A program made the translations under genes and the position numbers. Under the pieces are notes generated by a model, which was not told the origin of the DNA, ran no database searches, and saw only the letters and a program-made list of their open reading frames with translations. Shown piece after piece: positions 9,621 to 20,967 of a DNA stretch of 36,365 bases (position 1 is the stretch's first letter; each line of letters begins with the position of its first letter). The stretch is from a virus. Its lineage: Duplodnaviria; Caudoviricetes. The stretch is taken from the IMG/VR virus record IMGVR_UViG_3300017649_000012, positions 1 through 36,365 of that record; one strand, written 5' to 3'.

Positions 9621-9683
9621 TCTAGCACTGCAATGCTAGATTCTAAGCATTAAATGGCTAGTGTCAAGCAATTTGATGCTAGG
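9621..9683. promoter_or_regulatory. Three tandem repressor operators (OL1-3), consensus TCTAGCA-N6-TGCTAGA
   Basis: 9621 TCTAGCACTGCAATGCTAGA, 9643 CTAAGCATTAAATGGCTAGT, 9664 TCAAGCAATTTGATGCTAGG; 21-22 bp period. Confidence 0.85.
9640..9667 (-). promoter_or_regulatory. PL-like early leftward promoter
   Basis: TTGACA (9667-9662), 16 nt, TAGAAT (9645-9640); overlapped by operators. Confidence 0.75.
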
Positions 9684-9689
9684 ATGGAG

Positions 9690-9716
9690 AAAAAAGGCCG
9701 CCAATTACGGTGGCTC
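9690..9716 (-). terminator. Intrinsic terminator of the cI / MuF-paralog transcript
   Basis: Minus strand GCCACCG-TAAT-TGGCGGC (one mismatch) followed by CTTTTTT, about 15 nt after the 9731 stop. Confidence 0.65.
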
Positions 9717-9730
9717 TGGCAGGGGAGAAA

Positions 9731-10468
9731 TCAGGGGCGGCGCAGGAACCGCGCCATGTTCTTAAACCAGTTCGAAAGGCGCGTGCGCCACGTCGGCCCA
9801 CTTGAAGGGGCCGAAACTGTGGTTACAGCGTTGGCGGCCAATGGCTGTGTATTCTGGAAACTTGGGGTGGGGCTGAGGGGGGATGGCTCGTCGCCGTGAA
9901 CGATCAGCGCGTCCAGGTCTTCGAGCAGCGGCAGCCTCGGCTCGGCCCAGCATTTACACAGACCGCCCTCTCCAGGGTGGCCGCCTTCTGGGGGATCGTC
10001 CCACTTGAATATGGTGCCGTCGCGCTCCATGTGGTACGCGCAGATGCTGCGCCATCGGTATTCGGTTACCCCCAGTGAGGCACAGCGGTGGCGAGTGATG
10101 GCGGAGCAAACTTCGCGCATGCCGGCAACGGCGATAAGCCGAGCGAGTCCCGGGGCTACATCCAGTCTTGTTCGAAGCTGTGCTGACATCGTTGCTGCAC
10201 TAGATCCGCGGCGGACATGCTCATAGAAAAAGCCGCGCAGTGTTGGAATTGCTTCGGGATTGCCTATCTTCGGCGAGACCCTCCGCTTACCGGCTAGAGT
10301 GAGCAATGTGGCGGGGTATCCCGGCTCGCAAAGCGAGTCGATGAATCGACCATCTGCCTCAAGTGCGGCAATGATGAGCGCATCATCGCCAGAAAAAATA
10401 TTCGCCTTCAGCGCCTCGCGCCTTTCGGAATGAGCCGACCCCACGCCATTTATGCTTTTATCAGCCAT
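9731..10468 (-). CDS. Diverged SPP1 gp7/Mu gpF-like head-morphogenesis paralog in the immunity region (candidate superinfection-exclusion decoy); alternative GTG start at 10510
   Basis: GVTEYRWR...H...F.WDDPP..GHPG....CKCWAEPRLPLLEDLDALIVH aligns with the end of 20128..20967 (36/59 identical by hand); extra Pro/Ser/Thr linker and amphipathic C-terminal helix. Confidence 0.85.
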   Translation of the reverse strand: MADKSINGVGSAHSERREALKANIFSGDDALIIAALEADGRFIDSLCEPGYPATLLTLAGKRRVSPKIGNPEAIPTLRGFFYEHVRRGSSAATMSAQLRTRLDVAPGLARLIAVAGMREVCSAITRHRCASLGVTEYRWRSICAYHMERDGTIFKWDDPPEGGHPGEGGLCKCWAEPRLPLLEDLDALIVHGDEPSPLSPTPSFQNTQPLAANAVTTVSAPSSGPTWRTRLSNWFKNMARFLRRP

Positions 10469-10513
10469 GCCCACCTGACCACAAAAATGACATTCCCTCG
10501 GCGGCGCCACCTT

Positions 10514-10924
10514 TTAGGCAGTGCTTTTGATGGGAGGAGTTCCCTTCTGAATGGGGTTGCCTGCAACGTATCCGCGCGCGTTCAGCAGCAGATAGGTCCG
10601 CTCTGGCTCGTTGAGGGAGCGAAATAGCGTGAGGAGTTCGACTTCCTCCGGGGCGAGGTCTACCGCGGTTGTGGCCGTGTTGGCCAGTTTCGGCGGGGAT
10701 AGCGGATTGAAGCCGGGGACCAGCAATTGCCAAGTGTCAAATCGAAAAAACTTAGCAATTTGTTGAAGCGTCTCGACGTTCGGATTACCTGTGCCGTATT
10801 TGATGCGCCCAAGCGTGCCGTCGGCAACACCCATCAGTTTCGAGAGATTCAGACGCGAGATGTCCTGCCGCGTTTCCAGCAGCTTGGCGACACTTTGGGC
10901 GAGGATCTCTTTTACGTCTGGCAT
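10514..10924 (-). CDS. cI: CI-like repressor (XRE HTH, no peptidase domain)
   Basis: SRLNLSKLMGVADGTLGRIKYGTGNPNVETLQQIAKFF HTH; divergent from cro across the operators. Confidence 0.85.
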   Translation of the reverse strand: MPDVKEILAQSVAKLLETRQDISRLNLSKLMGVADGTLGRIKYGTGNPNVETLQQIAKFFRFDTWQLLVPGFNPLSPPKLANTATTAVDLAPEEVELLTLFRSLNEPERTYLLLNARGYVAGNPIQKGTPPIKSTA

Positions 10925-10991
10925 TGGATTGCTAGTGTATCGAGGCGAGGTAGCCTTTTGGTGCTTGATGATCTAGCCACATAATGCTAGA
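10917..10991. promoter_or_regulatory. Three OR operators
   Basis: 10972 TCTAGCCACATAATGCTAGA, 10949 GGTAGCCTTTTGGTGCTTGA, 10917 TCTGGCATTGGATTGCTAGT; same half-site spacing as OL. Confidence 0.8.
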
Positions 10992-11021: not shown

Positions 11022-11249
11022 ATGTCTCTAATTTCTGAAGTCCGCTCGGGCCTGCAGCTGAATAAGGGCCGCTGGCCGCTCATCAGCAGGCGCGCGGGCG
11101 TGTCCTATTCCTGGCTGACGAAGTTCGCGCAGGGGCGCATCGCCAATCCCGGGGCGCGCCAACTCGAATCCGTGGAGGCCGCATTGCGCGAGCCCATGGC
11201 GGGCCAGCCGCCCGCCGAGTCCGACACAGCCGGAGCGAGCCATGCGTGA
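11022..11249 (+). CDS. cro: Cro-like HTH regulator
   Basis: WPLISRRAGVSYSWLTKFAQGRIANPG HTH, 75 aa, divergent from cI. Confidence 0.8.
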   Translation: MSLISEVRSGLQLNKGRWPLISRRAGVSYSWLTKFAQGRIANPGARQLESVEAALREPMAGQPPAESDTAGASHA

Positions 11250-11616
11250 GTTCCAGACCTATGCCGACCTGGACATTCACGCCTGGCTCGAACCTGCCGG
11301 GGGTGGTGTTCGCCTGGTGCTGGAGGGGGCCAAGATGCGAGAGGTGGCGCCGGAGTTGTTGGGCATGCGCCTGCGTGATGGAGCTGGTCGTCACATTGGC
11401 TATGCCACTTTCCGGCCCGTCAGTGATGTGTGCAACCGCTTCACCTACGAGCTGGCTCAAATCATCCCCGGGCTGACGCCGCCCGAGGGCGTGACGGAAT
11501 GGAGCCGGCCATTCGGGTATCTCATGATCGGCTGGGAGAGGGAGTTCAGAGACCAGCCGCAAGCTGCATCCGACACCGCGTCGCCTATTGGCGCAGGCGA
11601 GGAAAACCATGCATGA
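11242..11616 (+). CDS. Hypothetical protein
   Basis: 124 aa, GGAG RBS, overlaps the cro stop. Confidence 0.65.
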   Translation: MREFQTYADLDIHAWLEPAGGGVRLVLEGAKMREVAPELLGMRLRDGAGRHIGYATFRPVSDVCNRFTYELAQIIPGLTPPEGVTEWSRPFGYLMIGWEREFRDQPQAASDTASPIGAGEENHA

Positions 11617-11651: not shown

Positions 11652-11939
11652 TTAGGCTTCTGCAGCACCTGTCGGCTGAACAAAGCCGATCGGACGACTC
11701 TCCTCGGGTTGCACCTGCATCACTGCCACAACTGATTGGTGCGGCACCCACGCTTCGTAATCCCTTGAAGGATGCAATTGCGTGGGAGACAGCCGCAGGC
11801 CGAGATAGTGCGTATTGGTCCAGTCGACGCGCGAACACTCCACTGCAGGATGACCCTCGAAGTCTGTCGTCTGCTGCCTCGCAAGTACCTCTGCCGCAGC
11901 CGATTCTCGGTGCAGCACAACATGCCAATTTCCTGCCAT
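11652..11939 (-). CDS. Hypothetical protein, antisense accessory gene
   Basis: MAGNWHVVLHRES...RPIGFVQP; GAAGGA RBS; lower GC than flanks. Confidence 0.65.
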   Translation of the reverse strand: MAGNWHVVLHRESAAAEVLARQQTTDFEGHPAVECSRVDWTNTHYLGLRLSPTQLHPSRDYEAWVPHQSVVAVMQVQPEESRPIGFVQPTGAAEA

Positions 11940-12024
11940 GGCCGGTTCCTTCTCCGAAGTAGGGTTGTGTGAGAGCACCCATTCTACGGGGCTGGAACTG
12001 GCCACCCATTGCCGCCGCCACGCC

Positions 12025-12216
12025 TCAATGCCGCGTGGCGGCCAGCTCGCGCGTGGGCTCAACGTCGCCCCGTGCGTCGACCTCGCAGCACAGCCGCCCG
12101 AACACCTCGCGCACCGTTTCCTCGCTGGCCTGGCCGAGCACACTCTCCGCGATGCTCTTGGCCAGTTGCAGCAGCGCGCGTGTGGCCTGGGCCGCGTCCC
12201 GTTCCCAATTGTCCAT
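12025..12216 (-). CDS. Hypothetical small protein, antisense accessory gene
   Basis: 63 aa, helical-looking, GGGAGA RBS. Confidence 0.55.
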   Translation of the reverse strand: MDNWERDAAQATRALLQLAKSIAESVLGQASEETVREVFGRLCCEVDARGDVEPTRELAATRH

Positions 12217-12989: not shown

Positions 12990-14180
12990 ATGGACACGAC
13001 GCATAGCCCCGATCTGCCTGCGCCCATGACCCCGCCGGACTGCAACCTGCGCGGCCTGCCATTCATGCCGCTGGACACCGAACGGCTGCTCGACAGCGAC
13101 ATGATGGCGCTGTCCACGGGCGAGGAGTTCAAGACAGCGCTGCGACTGTGGTGCAAGAGCTGGAGCCAGGAGCCGGCGGCATCCTTGCCGGACGACGACA
13201 GGATCCTGGCCCACCTAGCCGGCAAGGAGCTGGCCGCGTGGCGCAAGGTGCGGGCAATGGCGCTGCGCGGATTCGTGAGGTGCAGCGACGGTCGTCTGTA
13301 TCACCCGGTGATAGCAGAGAAGGCACTGGAGGCCATGCGTCGGCGAGAAGAGCACCAGGCGGCTCGCGAGGGCGATAACGAGCGCAAACGGGAGGAGCGC
13401 GAGGACCGCAAGTTGCTCTTTGCCGCGCTGCGTGACATGGGCGTGATTCTGCCAGCGAAGGGCACCAGTACGTCACACCTGCGTGAGGTCGCGGCGTCAC
13501 GCGGAATTTCCATCGTCGTCACGGAGGGTCACAAGGGCGTCACTGTGACACCCGTAGGAAGTCACAAGGAAAGTCACGGGGATGTCACGGCTAAGACAGG
13601 GACAGGGACAGGGACATATATAAAAGATAATGCGGCGGCAGCGTCTCACGCGCGTGCGCCCGCGCACGAGGACGACCCCCCGCCGCCGCCGCTTGACGGC
13701 GAAAAAACGCTCGACGAGAAGGCCCTGGCCGTGGCTGTCTGGCTGCGGCGTCGGGAAAAGGCCCGCGGCAAGCAGCCCAGGGGCACGCAGAGCAACGACC
13801 CGCGCATCGTCGCGTGGATCGCGGCTGGCGTGACCGGCACCCAGCTGGCCGAAGCCTACGAGCTGGCCGTCCTGGACCGCGAGGCAACCGGCGACCCTGG
13901 CCCGATCACGCCGGGATTCCTGGACGTGTTCGTCGCCAAGGTGCTGACCCCGCCTGCTGCGCAGAGTACGGTGAACGGCAAGCGCCAGGCGGCGCAGCTG
14001 GTCGACCCACTCGCCTGGGCCACAACCGCGTCAGGCATCGTCGCCAAGGGTGCCGAGCTGGGCCTCGAACAGGGCAAAACCGAGCCGTTTCCCGCGTTCA
14101 AACTGCGCGTCCACGCTGCCGCGAACCTGTCCGAGCAAGACCGAGCCCGGCTGCGCGCCGACTACGGGGTGCACGCATGA
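12990..14180 (+). CDS. Replication initiator (DUF1376/YdaU-like N-terminus, lambda O analogue)
   Basis: LPFMPLDTERLLDSD...LWCKSW.Q.PAASLPDDD..LA.LAG...GRLYHPV; carries internal iterons. Confidence 0.82.
   Translation: MDTTHSPDLPAPMTPPDCNLRGLPFMPLDTERLLDSDMMALSTGEEFKTALRLWCKSWSQEPAASLPDDDRILAHLAGKELAAWRKVRAMALRGFVRCSDGRLYHPVIAEKALEAMRRREEHQAAREGDNERKREEREDRKLLFAALRDMGVILPAKGTSTSHLREVAASRGISIVVTEGHKGVTVTPVGSHKESHGDVTAKTGTGTGTYIKDNAAAASHARAPAHEDDPPPPPLDGEKTLDEKALAVAVWLRRREKARGKQPRGTQSNDPRIVAWIAAGVTGTQLAEAYELAVLDREATGDPGPITPGFLDVFVAKVLTPPAAQSTVNGKRQAAQLVDPLAWATTASGIVAKGAELGLEQGKTEPFPAFKLRVHAAANLSEQDRARLRADYGVHA
13472..13630 (+). repeat. Iteron array, putative replication origin
   Basis: GTCAC at 13472, 13496, 13518, 13528, 13539, 13561, 13573, 13584 (inverted GTGAC at 13545), then (GACAGG)x3.7 at 13595-13616 and AT-rich ATATATAAAAGATAAT. 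Confidence 0.75.
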
Positions 14181-17375: not shown

Positions 17376-18909
17376 TCCTGCGGTCCTGCGCGCCACGGCG
17401 AAAGCCATGTGCGAGCGGGATCATTTGTTCTTCAGCCGGTACTTTTTCAAGCATCGGCAGGCCATCAAATTTCGGGTCAACTGGCACCATGAGTTGATCG
17501 CCGAGAGGGTGCAGGCCGTCATCGACGGCCGCATCAAGAACCTGGTCATCAATGTGCCTCCGGGCTCGTCGAAGACTGAGTTGGTGGCCATCAACCTGAT
17601 GGCCCGCGGCCTGGCGCTGAACCCGCGGGCGCGCTTCCTGCACATCAGCTACTCGGACGACCTAGCGCTGCTGAATTCGCAGACGGCCCGCGAGCTGGTG
17701 CAGTCCGACGAGTTCCAGGAGCTCTGGCCCCTGGCGATTGCCGACGACGCGAAGTCGAAGAAGCGCTGGAACGTCCTGGTGGACGGCAAGAAGGCCGGCG
17801 GCGTGTACGCCGTCAGCCTGGGCGGCCAGATCACCGGATTTCGCGCGGGCCACATGGCGGAGGGGTTTCAGGGTGCCATCATCATTGATGACCCGCTGAA
17901 ACCCGAGGACGCCTACAGCAAAGCGCGGCGGTCGGCGGCCAATCGCAGGTTGTTGTCCACCGTCAAGAGCCGGAAGGCCAACCCGGACACGCCGATCATC
18001 GTGATCATGCAGCGGCTGGCGCAGGAGGATGTGACCGGGTTCATCGAGGCTGGCAATCTGCCTGGCGAGTGGGAGCACATCGTCATCCCGGCGATGATCG
18101 ACGACGATTACGTCGCCGGCCTGCCGGAGCACCTGCGGGCCAAAGTGGGCAGCACCGAGCGCGACGACAAGGGGCGCTTCAGCTACTGGCCGTACAAAGA
18201 GCCGCTGGGCGACCTGCTCGCCATGGAGGCGGGCACAGGGGCCGATCAGGACGGCGCGCGTGTCAGTCGGTTTGTGTTCGCTTCGCAGTATCAGCAACGT
18301 CCAGCGCCGCTGGGCGGCGACTTGATCCAGGGGGCTTGGTTCGGGCGGTACCGCACGCTGCCCAAGATCGTCTCGCGCAAGGTGTTCGTGGACACCGCGC
18401 AAAAAACCGCCGAGCGCAACGACTACAGCGTGTTCGAGTGCTGGGGCCTGGGCGACGACGGAAAGTTGTACCTGCTGGATCTGCTGCGTGGGAAATGGGC
18501 CGCGCCGGAGCTCAAGCGCCGTGCGGTCGATTTTTGGACCAAGCACAGGCCATACGACACGAAACTCTCTGCGCCGTTGAGGCAGATGCTCATTGAGGAC
18601 AAGTCAAGCGGCACCGGCCTGATCCAGGAGATCGCCGCCGATGGCAAGATCCCCGTTAGGGGCGTGGAGCGCGTCAAAGACAAGTTGACGCGTGTCATGG
18701 ACGTGCAGTCGTACATCGAGGCTGGGCTGATCTGCATCCCCGAAGAGGCCGATTTCGTGGCCGATTTCCTGGCCGAGTGCGAGGCATTCACGGCGGACGA
18801 CACGCACGCCCACGATGACCAGGTGGACCCAATGGTCGACGCCATCAACGACATGCTCGCCACAGCGGGCAGCAACATAGGGCGCTTCAGGGCGCTGGCA
18901 CAGGCATGA
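17326..18909 (+). CDS. terL: Terminase large subunit (start uncertain; alternative ATG at 17407)
   Basis: Walker A PPGSSKT, Walker B IIIDDP, MQR, nuclease VDTA...DYS, IEDKSSG, HDDQVD. Confidence 0.95.
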
Positions 18910-20186
18910 TCAACCAGGACGGTTACCTCACTGCGGTGATGGGGCATGGTGGCCTTCGCGCGCTCGCGGAACGCGGGCTGCAAGCCATCAACGACATGGA
19001 GATGTACGCCGATGGCGGCCTGGCTGCCCGTGTCGTGGACATGATTCCCGATGCGGCCGTGTCGCGCGGTGTCGAGATTCGCGGCGACGACCGCGTGCAC
19101 GGTGAACTGGACCGGCTGAAAGTGCTGCCGGCGCTGGCGGATGCCTGGCGCTGGGCGCGGCTCACGGGTGGCGGCGCAATCGTCTTGCTCAGCAGGGACG
19201 GGCGCGCGCTGCGCGACCCGCTGAACGTGTCTGGCCTGGACGAGCTGCTGGAACTCAAGGTATTTGCACTCGATGATGTGTCGGCGACGGACCAGCGGTA
19301 CTCCGACCCGAATCTGCCCAATTTCGGCATGCCCGAGCTGTACCGCGTGCGAACGCAGGCGCCCGGCGCAGTGGCTGCAGAATTTTTCGTGCACGAATCT
19401 CGCCTGATCGAAGTGCCGGGGGATCCACTTCCCGCAAAGCTCAACCGCACGGGTATTCCGTGGGCTGGCCGTCCTGCCGTCAGCGCCGCATACCGGGCCA
19501 TCCGCCGGTACCGCGCTGGCCTGCGCTGGTCGCTAAACCTGCTGGAGAAACAGCAGCAGGCCGTGCACAAGATGAAGGGCTTGGCCGAGGCTATCGAGCA
19601 AAAAATGGAAGAAACCGTGCGCAAGCGCGTCGAGATGGTCGACGCGGCGCGCAACGCCATGAACGGCGTGGCGGTTGACAGCGAGGACGACTACACGGTG
19701 CTGAGCTCCAACCTCAGCGGCGTGCGCGACGTGATCGCAGAGTTCCAGATCGCGCTGTCGGCCGAGACGGGAATCCCCGTAACGTTGCTCTTCGGTCGCT
19801 CTGCGGCCGGCATGAACTCCACCGGCGACGGCGACCTGGAGGGTTTCTACAACGGCGTCGTGATGGGGCGAGCTGTCAAGATCCAGCCCGCCCTCGAACG
19901 CATCGTCTCCCTGATCCGGGCGCAGCGCACGCTGGCCGGTGAGAGCCAGGGCGAGGATTGGAGCATCGTCTGGCCGGCTCTTAAGCAGATGAGCGCCAAG
20001 GAAGAGGCCGAGGTCGATAAGACGCGCGCTGAAGCACAGGCCCGGCTGATGGACGGCCTCAGTACTGCGGTGGACAACGGGCTGAGCCAAAACGAGGCAC
20101 GAGAGTTCATGAAAAAGGAATCCATGTATGGCCTCACCCCGGATTCCGCGGGCCAGTCGGCCGCGCAGTACGCCGCGCAAACCTAA
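18906..20186 (+). CDS. Portal protein (DUF1073 type)
   Basis: [31 protein letters not shown]...FY; follows terL. Confidence 0.88.
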
Positions 20187-20967
20187 GCCCTGGCGGTACC
20201 CGCTGGGCGACGAGCGCGATTACCAGAGCGCGCTGCGCAAGATCGCGGTGGCGTGCTCTCTGGCGGTGGAGAGGCATGTCATCGCGGCCCTGCCCGCCGT
20301 GCTGCGCCAGGACGACCTGCGCAACACGCCAGCCGGCGACGACGGATGGTTCGAGGCCCTGCGCCGGGCGTTCATGGAGGCGCTGGCGGTGGCCACCGTG
20401 TCCGATGGGCAGGCGTCAGAGCTGGCGGCAATGGTGGCCCAGCGTGTGGAGGCGTACAACCGCGAGCAGTTCCACCGCCTGTTGCGGCACGCCTATGGCG
20501 TGGACGTGTTCAAAGCCGAGCCAAGGCTGGCCAGCATTCTGCGGTCGTGGGAGGCCGAGAACATCGGGCTGATCAGGTCGATACCTGAAAAATACCTCGA
20601 CACGCTGCACGGCCGCGTCGTGGCCGCGGTGCGTGCAGGCACATCGCTGCGCGACATGACGCGCCAGATCCGCGAATCCTACGATTTGCCGCGCAACCGG
20701 GCAGAGCTGATTGCGCGCGACCAGATCGGCAAGCTCAACGGCGACTTGACCGAGTACCGGCAGCGCAATGTCGGCGTCAAGAAGTATCGGTGGCGCGGCG
20801 TCCTGGACGAGCGCGAGCGCGATGAGCATGTCGCTCGGGAAGGGCAGGAGTTCGAGTGGGACAAGCCGCCGGCCGACGGCCACCCGGGCAAGCCCATCCG
20901 CTGTCGCTGCTGGGCCGAGCCGGAGCTGCCGCAGCTTGAAGATCTGGACGCACTGATCGTTCATTGA
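20128..20967 (+). CDS. Head morphogenesis / minor head protein, SPP1 gp7 / Mu gpF family
   Basis: RAELIARDQ, YRWRGVLDERERDEH, HPG.PIRCRC motifs; follows the portal. Confidence 0.93.
   Translation: MASPRIPRASRPRSTPRKPKPWRYPLGDERDYQSALRKIAVACSLAVERHVIAALPAVLRQDDLRNTPAGDDGWFEALRRAFMEALAVATVSDGQASELAAMVAQRVEAYNREQFHRLLRHAYGVDVFKAEPRLASILRSWEAENIGLIRSIPEKYLDTLHGRVVAAVRAGTSLRDMTRQIRESYDLPRNRAELIARDQIGKLNGDLTEYRQRNVGVKKYRWRGVLDERERDEHVAREGQEFEWDKPPADGHPGKPIRCRCWAEPELPQLEDLDALIVH

Follow-up and report, generated by a model that had tools for sequence, protein, structure and literature searches.

The 36-kb virus record analysed in this paper (the window, 36,365 nt; completeness 67% by CheckV) carries a second gene derived from the gp7/MuF minor head protein, located between the cI repressor gene and the left operators (Table 1). 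This paralogue is real, conserved in part and recurrent. The best reading, held at somewhat short of even confidence, is that it represents a membrane-tethered gp7 decoy made by the lysogen against related phages. Some action of the paralogue against other phages, with all such readings taken together, is probable.

Table 1. Coordinates of the paralogue, its parts and the surrounding features in the window.
Feature	Position	Strand	Evidence and remarks
Left operators, three palindromes (9622, 9644, 9665)	9622..9682	.	overlap strong leftward sigma-70 early promoter at 9667-9640 (11/12 match)
Intrinsic-terminator-like hairpin + U tract, imperfect in window allele	9690..9716	-	folding; sister-allele comparison
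gp7/MuF-derived accessory gene	9731..10468	-	245 aa; 259 aa from GTG 10510; BLASTP, Pfam, TIGRFAM matches
C-terminal cationic amphipathic helix, residues 227-243, predicted membrane anchor	9734..9790	-	moment, charge; helix in both models
Pro/Ser/Thr-rich linker	9791..9895	-	low model confidence
Retained C-terminal gp7 module	9896..10072	-	alignment, model; 5-residue deletion removes D-x-R-x-R
56-nt tract read as gene conversion, codons 173-191	9897..9952	-	55/56 vs sister phage's virion gp7
Site of gp7 ARDQIGKLNG motif, replaced at 9 consecutive conserved columns	10103..10132	-	alignment
Residues 1-70, degenerate relic of gp7 middle with ~23-residue insertion	10259..10468	-	alignments; exact register uncertain, one alignment differs
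cI-like repressor, 136 aa, HTH only (HTH_3)	10514..10924	-	profile matches
Right operators, two palindromes of left-operator type (10918, 10973)	10918..10990	.	between cI and cro
cro-like gene	11022..11249	+	profile matches
Portal protein (PF06381), likely gp7 partner	18906..20186	+	Pfam; partner role from SPP1 literature
Virion gp7/MuF minor head protein, 279 aa	20128..20967	+	domain and PHROG matches

As seen in Table 1, the gene order of the window is lambdoid: exonuclease, early genes, left operators, paralogue ORF, cI, right operators, cro and cII, followed by replication genes, terminase, portal, gp7, protease and capsid. Genes from four Achromobacter genomes share 78-80% identity with the window gp7, which makes a host of the Achromobacter group likely. 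The ORF is open to 9731 from GTG 10510 or ATG 10468, and the GTG stands 3 nt past the cI stop; the genuine ORF on the cI strand that the sequence-only reading had proposed is confirmed as an open frame. In the public protein collection, the 245-aa form (ATG 10468) is present and the 259-aa form is absent. The interval between cI and the left operators is the one that holds rex in lambda, and the layout suggests that the paralogue would be co-transcribed with cI from the cI promoter. None of the 20 runs listed was of RNA, a result that carries no information on expression. The terminator claimed in front of the left operators was upheld in part. A hairpin is present, but it is weak in the window allele (-8.2 kcal/mol, one mismatch, z -0.82, no better than shuffles) and the terminator scan of the window made no call behind the ORF, whereas the sister allele has a perfect 7-bp stem plus U8 (-13.6 kcal/mol).

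Several other properties of the window were recorded. The window repressor (10514-10924) is without an S24 self-cleavage domain, and relatives with the same flanks alternate between HTH-only and S24-type repressors; because the window repressor is HTH-only, induction of this phage likely needs an antirepressor. The accessory ORFs between cro and cII (11652-12143, minus strand; 11242-11616, plus strand) are patchy among relatives, and neither Pfam nor PHROG gives them a family above cut-off. The window also has an exact direct repeat of 20 nt, at 2953-2972 and 13985-14004, 11 kb apart.

Comparison of the paralogue with the phage's own gp7 (20128..20967) by BLASTP gives 53/123 identities (43%, E 6e-31), which bears out the earlier alignment of the two cores; the 36/59 identities noted for the last segment and the identical LEDLDALIVH are both exact. 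Likeness at the DNA level is limited to 113 nt (86/113, 76%; 9897-10009 vs 20851-20963), the sole long internal repeat of the window. The Phage_Mu_F HMM search suggested for the ORF was run, and both PF04233 (E 4e-8, 34.4 bits vs cut-off 29.6) and TIGR01641 (40.0 bits vs cut-off 39.65) scored over their cut-offs; PHROG 324 also matches. The three long paralogues group together in a 76-row tree, where they sit apart from the phage's own gp7 on a very long branch (2.67 + 0.63 changes per column for the paralogue). Judged by this divergence, the paralogue is an old, fast-diverged family and not a fresh copy of the phage's own gp7. A role as a normal virion component was rejected as unlikely in view of an intact gp7 and the loss of motifs.

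Two features go beyond the sequence-only reading: a 54-residue extension with a cationic amphipathic helix, and the disappearance of two invariant gp7 motifs (comparison set, 79 gp7 orthologues plus P0003). The N-terminal third of gp7, its first ~110 residues, is absent as well. The module that is retained follows the pattern G-x3-Y-x-W ... H ... R-x-G ... W-x-x-PP ... GHPG ... CxC ... LxDLDALIVH. Conserved gp7 columns are retained at 30/49 and variable columns at 20/59 (p 0.004); over residues 135-191 the counts are 21/28 vs 12/29 (p 0.01), and over residues 84-134 they are 9/21 vs 8/30 (p 0.18, not significant). The extension past gp7's natural end consists of a low-confidence linker plus one helix, the hydrophobic moment of which (0.68 over 18 residues, net +6) is the protein's highest (median 0.17), and the tail is predicted to bind the inner membrane. 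Pfam finds PF04233 alone in the paralogue and no toxin domain in the extension. An alignment-based model reached pLDDT 76.6, with 88-96 over residues 71-160, from an alignment of 69 sequences that are mostly virion gp7s, and it therefore leans to the gp7 fold; the single-sequence model was poor (pLDDT 48.8). The nearest viral structures in Foldseek are MuF/minor capsid proteins, consistent with a MuF-like predicted fold, and nothing significant was returned from solved structures (PDB) by sequence or by Foldseek.

Word-based searches found only two orthologues of the paralogue. An exhaustive search of 1.84 billion representatives yielded 2,793 matches, of which the best 150 were listed and 20 inspected. 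Among the listed matches, P0082, P0102, P0112 and P0127 align from the paralogue's N-terminus, and P0146, P0166, P0172 and P0173 are short forms; a profile search added P0227 and P0229. The family set of 16 proteins was chosen by eye, which makes its motif counts partly circular, a description of the set and no test of it: ARDQ (A(R/V)DQ) is kept in 0/16 vs 80/81 virion gp7s, the C-terminal His/Cys module pattern in 14/16 vs 77/81, and a cationic amphipathic tail (moment at least 0.55, net at least +3) is present in 10/16 vs 0/81, with two more family tails hydrophobic (12/16). P0127, P0146 and P0227 have no anchor-like tail. In P0002 the frame departs from MuF at CxC, and the end of P0166 looks like the G447 copy read in a different frame, so that two of the 16 members look frame-broken (P0002 and, probably, P0166). 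Family proteins are only 30-46% identical, and the module tree splits them into three groups. With regard to repeated independent origin, this tree needs 3 changes, but a single origin is not rejected (p-AU 0.27, 76 columns). MuF-type clusters, some of 106-114 aa, were also seen in the ESM Atlas as leads only.

The gene context of the family covers the window lineage plus four records. With six family queries, a first viral-contig scan gave 15 loci, 11 of them translated, among which L156, L157 and L164 hold non-virion copies and the others are head or toxin-type genes; a second scan (13 loci, 8 translated) found no new non-virion copy. A module profile over 68 records located copies in G447, G452, G474 and G475. 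Such copies are rare, being carried by 2/66 records picked only by gp7 likeness. In G447, G452 and G474, the copy is a 115-124-aa form whose start lies some 30-50 nt beyond the three palindromes of the left operators. It is oriented towards cI, from which a further small slot gene separates it, and a cI-S24/cro/cII module adjoins. The proposed synteny survey for MuF-like genes near repressors found gp7-derived copies at the left operators of all three. G447 and G452 also carry a virion gp7 15-16 kb away, while G474 is a fragment, with a gp7 on another contig of the same source prefix (G473); the gp7s of these phages are 50-54% identical to the window gp7. The promoter scan for these convergent copies gave one weak candidate in L156 and none in L157 or L185. 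The copy of G475 is a stand-alone, AT-rich form of 167 aa (GC3 0.28 vs 0.66) with a transmembrane-type tail and a terminator-like hairpin, placed apart from its own portal-gp7 pair and far from the repressor; a promoter-like site seen by eye failed the promoter scan. It is flanked by an antirepressor-like gene and a glycosyltransferase. The accessory cluster (L164:7938-11661) comprises a HicAB-like pair, a P22-type antirepressor, the gp7-derived gene and the AT-rich glycosyltransferase.

Other uses of MuF sequence were encountered during these searches. In P0007, P0035, P0043, P0051, P0063, P0067 and P0232, the MuF C-terminal module is fused to unrelated domains (peptidoglycan-binding, coiled-coil and others); with many proteins of this kind, in which it occurs alone, the module is mobile. 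Another possible reuse is a stand-alone protein of 309 aa (L225:1128-2057, minus strand), encoded away from any obvious phage module; its C-terminus bears a weak MuF-like His/Cys module and its N-terminus looks amphipathic. The gp7 frame of L137 has 635 codons, and its insertion, which ends in His-Asn before the CxC motif, resembles an intein in this end motif.

Two alleles of the paralogue are available as DNA, that of the window (L005, L028) and that of a sister phage (L006, L030), and they differ at 23/735 nt. The differences amount to 11.5 synonymous changes over 185 sites and 11.5 replacement changes over 550 (dN/dS 0.33, Fisher p 0.008-0.024); the window allele is under purifying selection. 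The corresponding dN/dS values of cI, cro and a neighbouring accessory ORF are 0.056, 0.13 and 0.45. Seven of the 23 differences cluster in 33 nt (codons 177-187, p 0.003), where the window paralogue is nearly identical to the sister phage's virion gp7 (Table 1). Over the 56 nt of codons 173-191, it agrees with that gp7 at 55 positions, with its own gp7 at 50 and with the sister paralogue at 49; the closest among 100 stored gp7 matches also reaches 50. Contigs of the sister gp7 come from runs X13, X15 and X16, all with the sister allele, and their flanks read as the virion gp7 3' end. The tract is best read as gene conversion between virion gp7 and paralogue, which may be neutral. An assembly artefact is ruled out, as the same allele was recovered in L005, L028 and run X5, and the second allele in L006, L030, X13, X15 and X16.

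These data bear on the possibility that the gene is a near-neutral relic, in which gp7 fragments were repeatedly captured in a recombination-prone immunity region and left to drift, with the end kept gp7-like by gene conversion. Gene conversion could maintain a gp7-like tail without selection, and the synonymous identity of the tail to 34 close gp7s (0.64 vs a codon-usage expectation of 0.58) is not above that expectation. The short forms of G474 and G452 differ by 12 changes, 3 of them synonymous and 9 replacement (dN/dS 0.87, vs 0.03 for their cI), and the clear conversion tract, the weakened terminator of the window allele, the two members that look frame-broken and the rarity of the family in every sample point in the same direction. 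However, the window ratio of 0.33 (p about 0.01-0.02) argues against drift, and an open, indel-free frame has persisted over about 150 codons at 78% identity to P0002. Also, the same motifs were lost, the module kept and a membrane-type tail gained among proteins of such low identity, and the copies were placed at left operators in two orientations. The prospect raised beforehand, of dN/dS near 1 or frequent pseudogenisation, is not borne out by the window allele; the short pair and the two members that look frame-broken go in its direction. A relic is considered rather unlikely.

To describe the slot behind cI, 27 related regions were fetched and the 22 with both anchors compared, several loci being near-duplicates. 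An unrelated small gene is present behind cI in 18/22 loci and no gene in 4/22, indicating that the slot is a variable accessory site. No MuF copy was found in the slot of the related loci examined, and a weak paralogue match in L081 runs through a stop and is attributed to chance. Most slot genes show a signal-peptide or membrane-like segment by eye, and one is a TM2 protein by Pfam. Even with a near-identical repressor type the slot gene differs, as a TM2 protein is found in L008 and a small membrane-like protein in L009. In L064-L087, TM2 proteins, a KKPTS-starting family, signal-peptide proteins and a zinc-ribbon membrane protein lie between cI and the left operators, and these recurrent small exported or membrane proteins are candidate exclusion genes. 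The sequence-only reading had placed the paralogue under lysogenic control in this slot; the variable accessory site holds, but the layout for co-transcription with cI is confined to the window lineage, since the copies of G447, G452 and G474 face cI.

In 401 genomes of the host family, 23 matches in 21 genomes all lie beside a portal or protease homologue, giving 0/23 gp7-derived copies, and the genome-collection scan with alignment A1 found no relative. In a class-wide sample, alignment A10 matched 2/400 genomes (11 scored candidates per genome at most) and PF04233 matched 42/400 (one genome unscored). Eight weak PF04233 places were fetched and showed no short copy beside a repressor, a credible MuF ORF being recovered in only 3/8. 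Among isolated phages, gp7 was found at 1,691 places in 1,690 records and the module at 1,235 places in 1,232 records; matches to the short form in 19 records are all head-operon genes. Plasmids gave 60 records with one place each. Second candidates in G439 and G460 had no score even at E 10, and the second match in G428 is a full-length gp7-type protein. The genomic context of P0002 and P0227 was not found in viral contigs (match L219, E 5e-4, left out). With PADLOC 2.0 (2023 library), 0/10 proteins match at E <= 0.01. A gp7-derived gene beside a repressor is apparently undescribed, at least in the literature searched, which covers few subscription journals and includes PMC4493119 and PMC12254948. 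The tables of PMC5576092 comprise 1,515 MuF proteins, 13-15% of them away from portal/terminase genes, and may include such genes unremarked.

How the paralogue might act can be sketched from its architecture. The lysogen would make it from the cI transcript, and the tail helix would hold it at the inner membrane. There, the retained module would bind gp7's normal partner, likely the portal, of a superinfecting relative; the captured partner would be kept from assembly, leaving heads mis-assembled or without working gp7. As one gp7 module is kept, the rest dropped and a membrane grip present, catching the module's partner would be the simplest action. The prophage would spare itself, likely by shut-off of the cI transcript on induction plus an excess of late-made gp7. 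SPP1 gp7 binds the portal and is targeted by it to the procapsid, yet it is dispensable for assembly, with only about 25% of gp7-less virions infectious (PMC6316719). This dispensability implies that simple competition would give only a few-fold effect. That a prophage protein blocking assembly of relatives can give population-level defence is reported for Tab (PMC10884400). The membrane-type tail puts tethering, or a sensor-pore, on a par in plausibility with a soluble subunit that poisons assembly.

In the sensor-pore version, an invader's 12-fold portal ring would be the docking site for the gp7 module; docking would cluster the helices into an inner-membrane pore, and the cell would die by abortive infection. 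This would combine a ring-partner domain with an amphipathic helix and would turn weak binding into a strong effect; Rip1 offers a parallel, as it contains an amphipathic helix, it assembles on terminase rings, and phages escape it through portal mutations (PMC13434031). Against it, no such tail exists in 3/16 members and one has a single transmembrane-type helix instead, no PADLOC match was obtained, and the phage's own portal would kill the cell without an antidote, none of which was identified. This explanation is judged unlikely. An entry block, in which gp7 or the leading DNA end is caught on injection by the module at the membrane, giving superinfection exclusion, would agree with the membrane or exported proteins in the slot of relatives. 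In the literature covered, SPP1 gp7 aids the start of infection, control of ejection is a role proposed for it, and delivery of MuF fusions into the host has been proposed. However, such delivery of gp7 is itself only a proposal there, only a few gp7 copies enter per infection, and module self-association and DNA binding are assumptions of this explanation, which appears improbable. Equally improbable is a self-directed role, in which the paralogue dampens leaky assembly of the phage's own heads or shields them from a host portal/gp7 sensor. The own gp7 does rank 2nd to 10th of 81 by BLASTP score for each of six copies with a known own gp7, and host systems that sense portal exist, such as RAZR. 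Nevertheless, one would look for a gene shielding late proteins in the late operon, where anti-Tab lies (PMC10884400), and the window tail is closer to the sister's gp7 than to its own. A MuF polymorphic toxin is ruled out by the lack of a toxin domain and of an immunity ORF downstream, where a hairpin, operators and the early promoter are found.

The membrane-tethered decoy thus remains the preferred reading for the window. A broader proposal, possible but more doubtful, is that temperate phages of several host groups have repeatedly turned the gp7/MuF gene into a membrane-tethered trap. Only the partner-binding module would survive in such a trap, refreshed by gene conversion from relatives' virion genes, and the gene's place in the immunity region would serve to catch the portal of superinfecting kin. 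If true, prophages would have their own counterpart of virus-derived restriction factors, and the 60-residue minimal module would mark the part of the poorly understood MuF domain that carries its function. The family forms a natural deletion series, always with one 60-residue module and tending to gain an anchor, which makes the module's partner directly testable. If protective in lysogens, it would represent phage defence by recycling a structural gene. In annotations such a gene passes unnoticed as a second 'minor head protein', and PF04233 misses the short forms.

Among known systems, MuF polymorphic toxins are, like the paralogue, encoded by temperate phages and have a MuF domain extended at its C-terminus. 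Those toxins replace the head gene beside portal/terminase (85-87% of muf genes) and carry a toxin domain and an immunity ORF (Jamet et al. 2017, PMC5576092), whereas in the paralogue the 54 added residues form a linker and a helix, no enzyme domain is present, and a terminator-like hairpin follows. Tab of Pseudomonas phage JBD26 (PMC10884400) and TerI of a Listeria prophage (PMC12908700) are, like the proposed decoy, prophage-encoded, aimed at virion assembly of relatives and faced with self-targeting. Their targets are the tape measure and the small terminase, they have dedicated antidotes, of which none was found for the paralogue, and in the texts covered they are not described as structural-protein paralogues. 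Like the paralogue, Rip1 is a small prophage protein with an amphipathic helix; it has a domain that contacts a phage ring protein, a role that is predicted for the gp7 module under the sensor-pore reading, and portal escape mutants. Its helix is N-terminal, its gene lies between terminase genes, no MuF relationship is mentioned in the available text, and its pore formation is demonstrated (PMC13434031), while for the paralogue a pore is a hypothesis.

With SPP1 gp7/MuF1 (PF04233, TIGR01641, PHROG 324), the paralogue shares a domain scoring over curated cut-offs and a predicted fold. Unlike virion gp7, it is no part of the head operon, the portal gene being some 9.6 kb away on the other strand; it also lacks the N-terminal third, ARDQ and D-x-R-x-R, has an added membrane-type tail and coexists with an intact gp7. 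The lambda rexAB and Sie genes sit behind cI, in the same genomic slot. No prophage example with a gp7 copy is known to us. Ccm of the cos-type SaPIs interferes as a capsid paralogue, a satellite gene acting on its helper, and Fv1 and enJSRV Gag are retrovirus-derived restriction factors. In Ccm and Fv1, a copy of a structural protein is used against a related virus, the same logic as that proposed for the paralogue.
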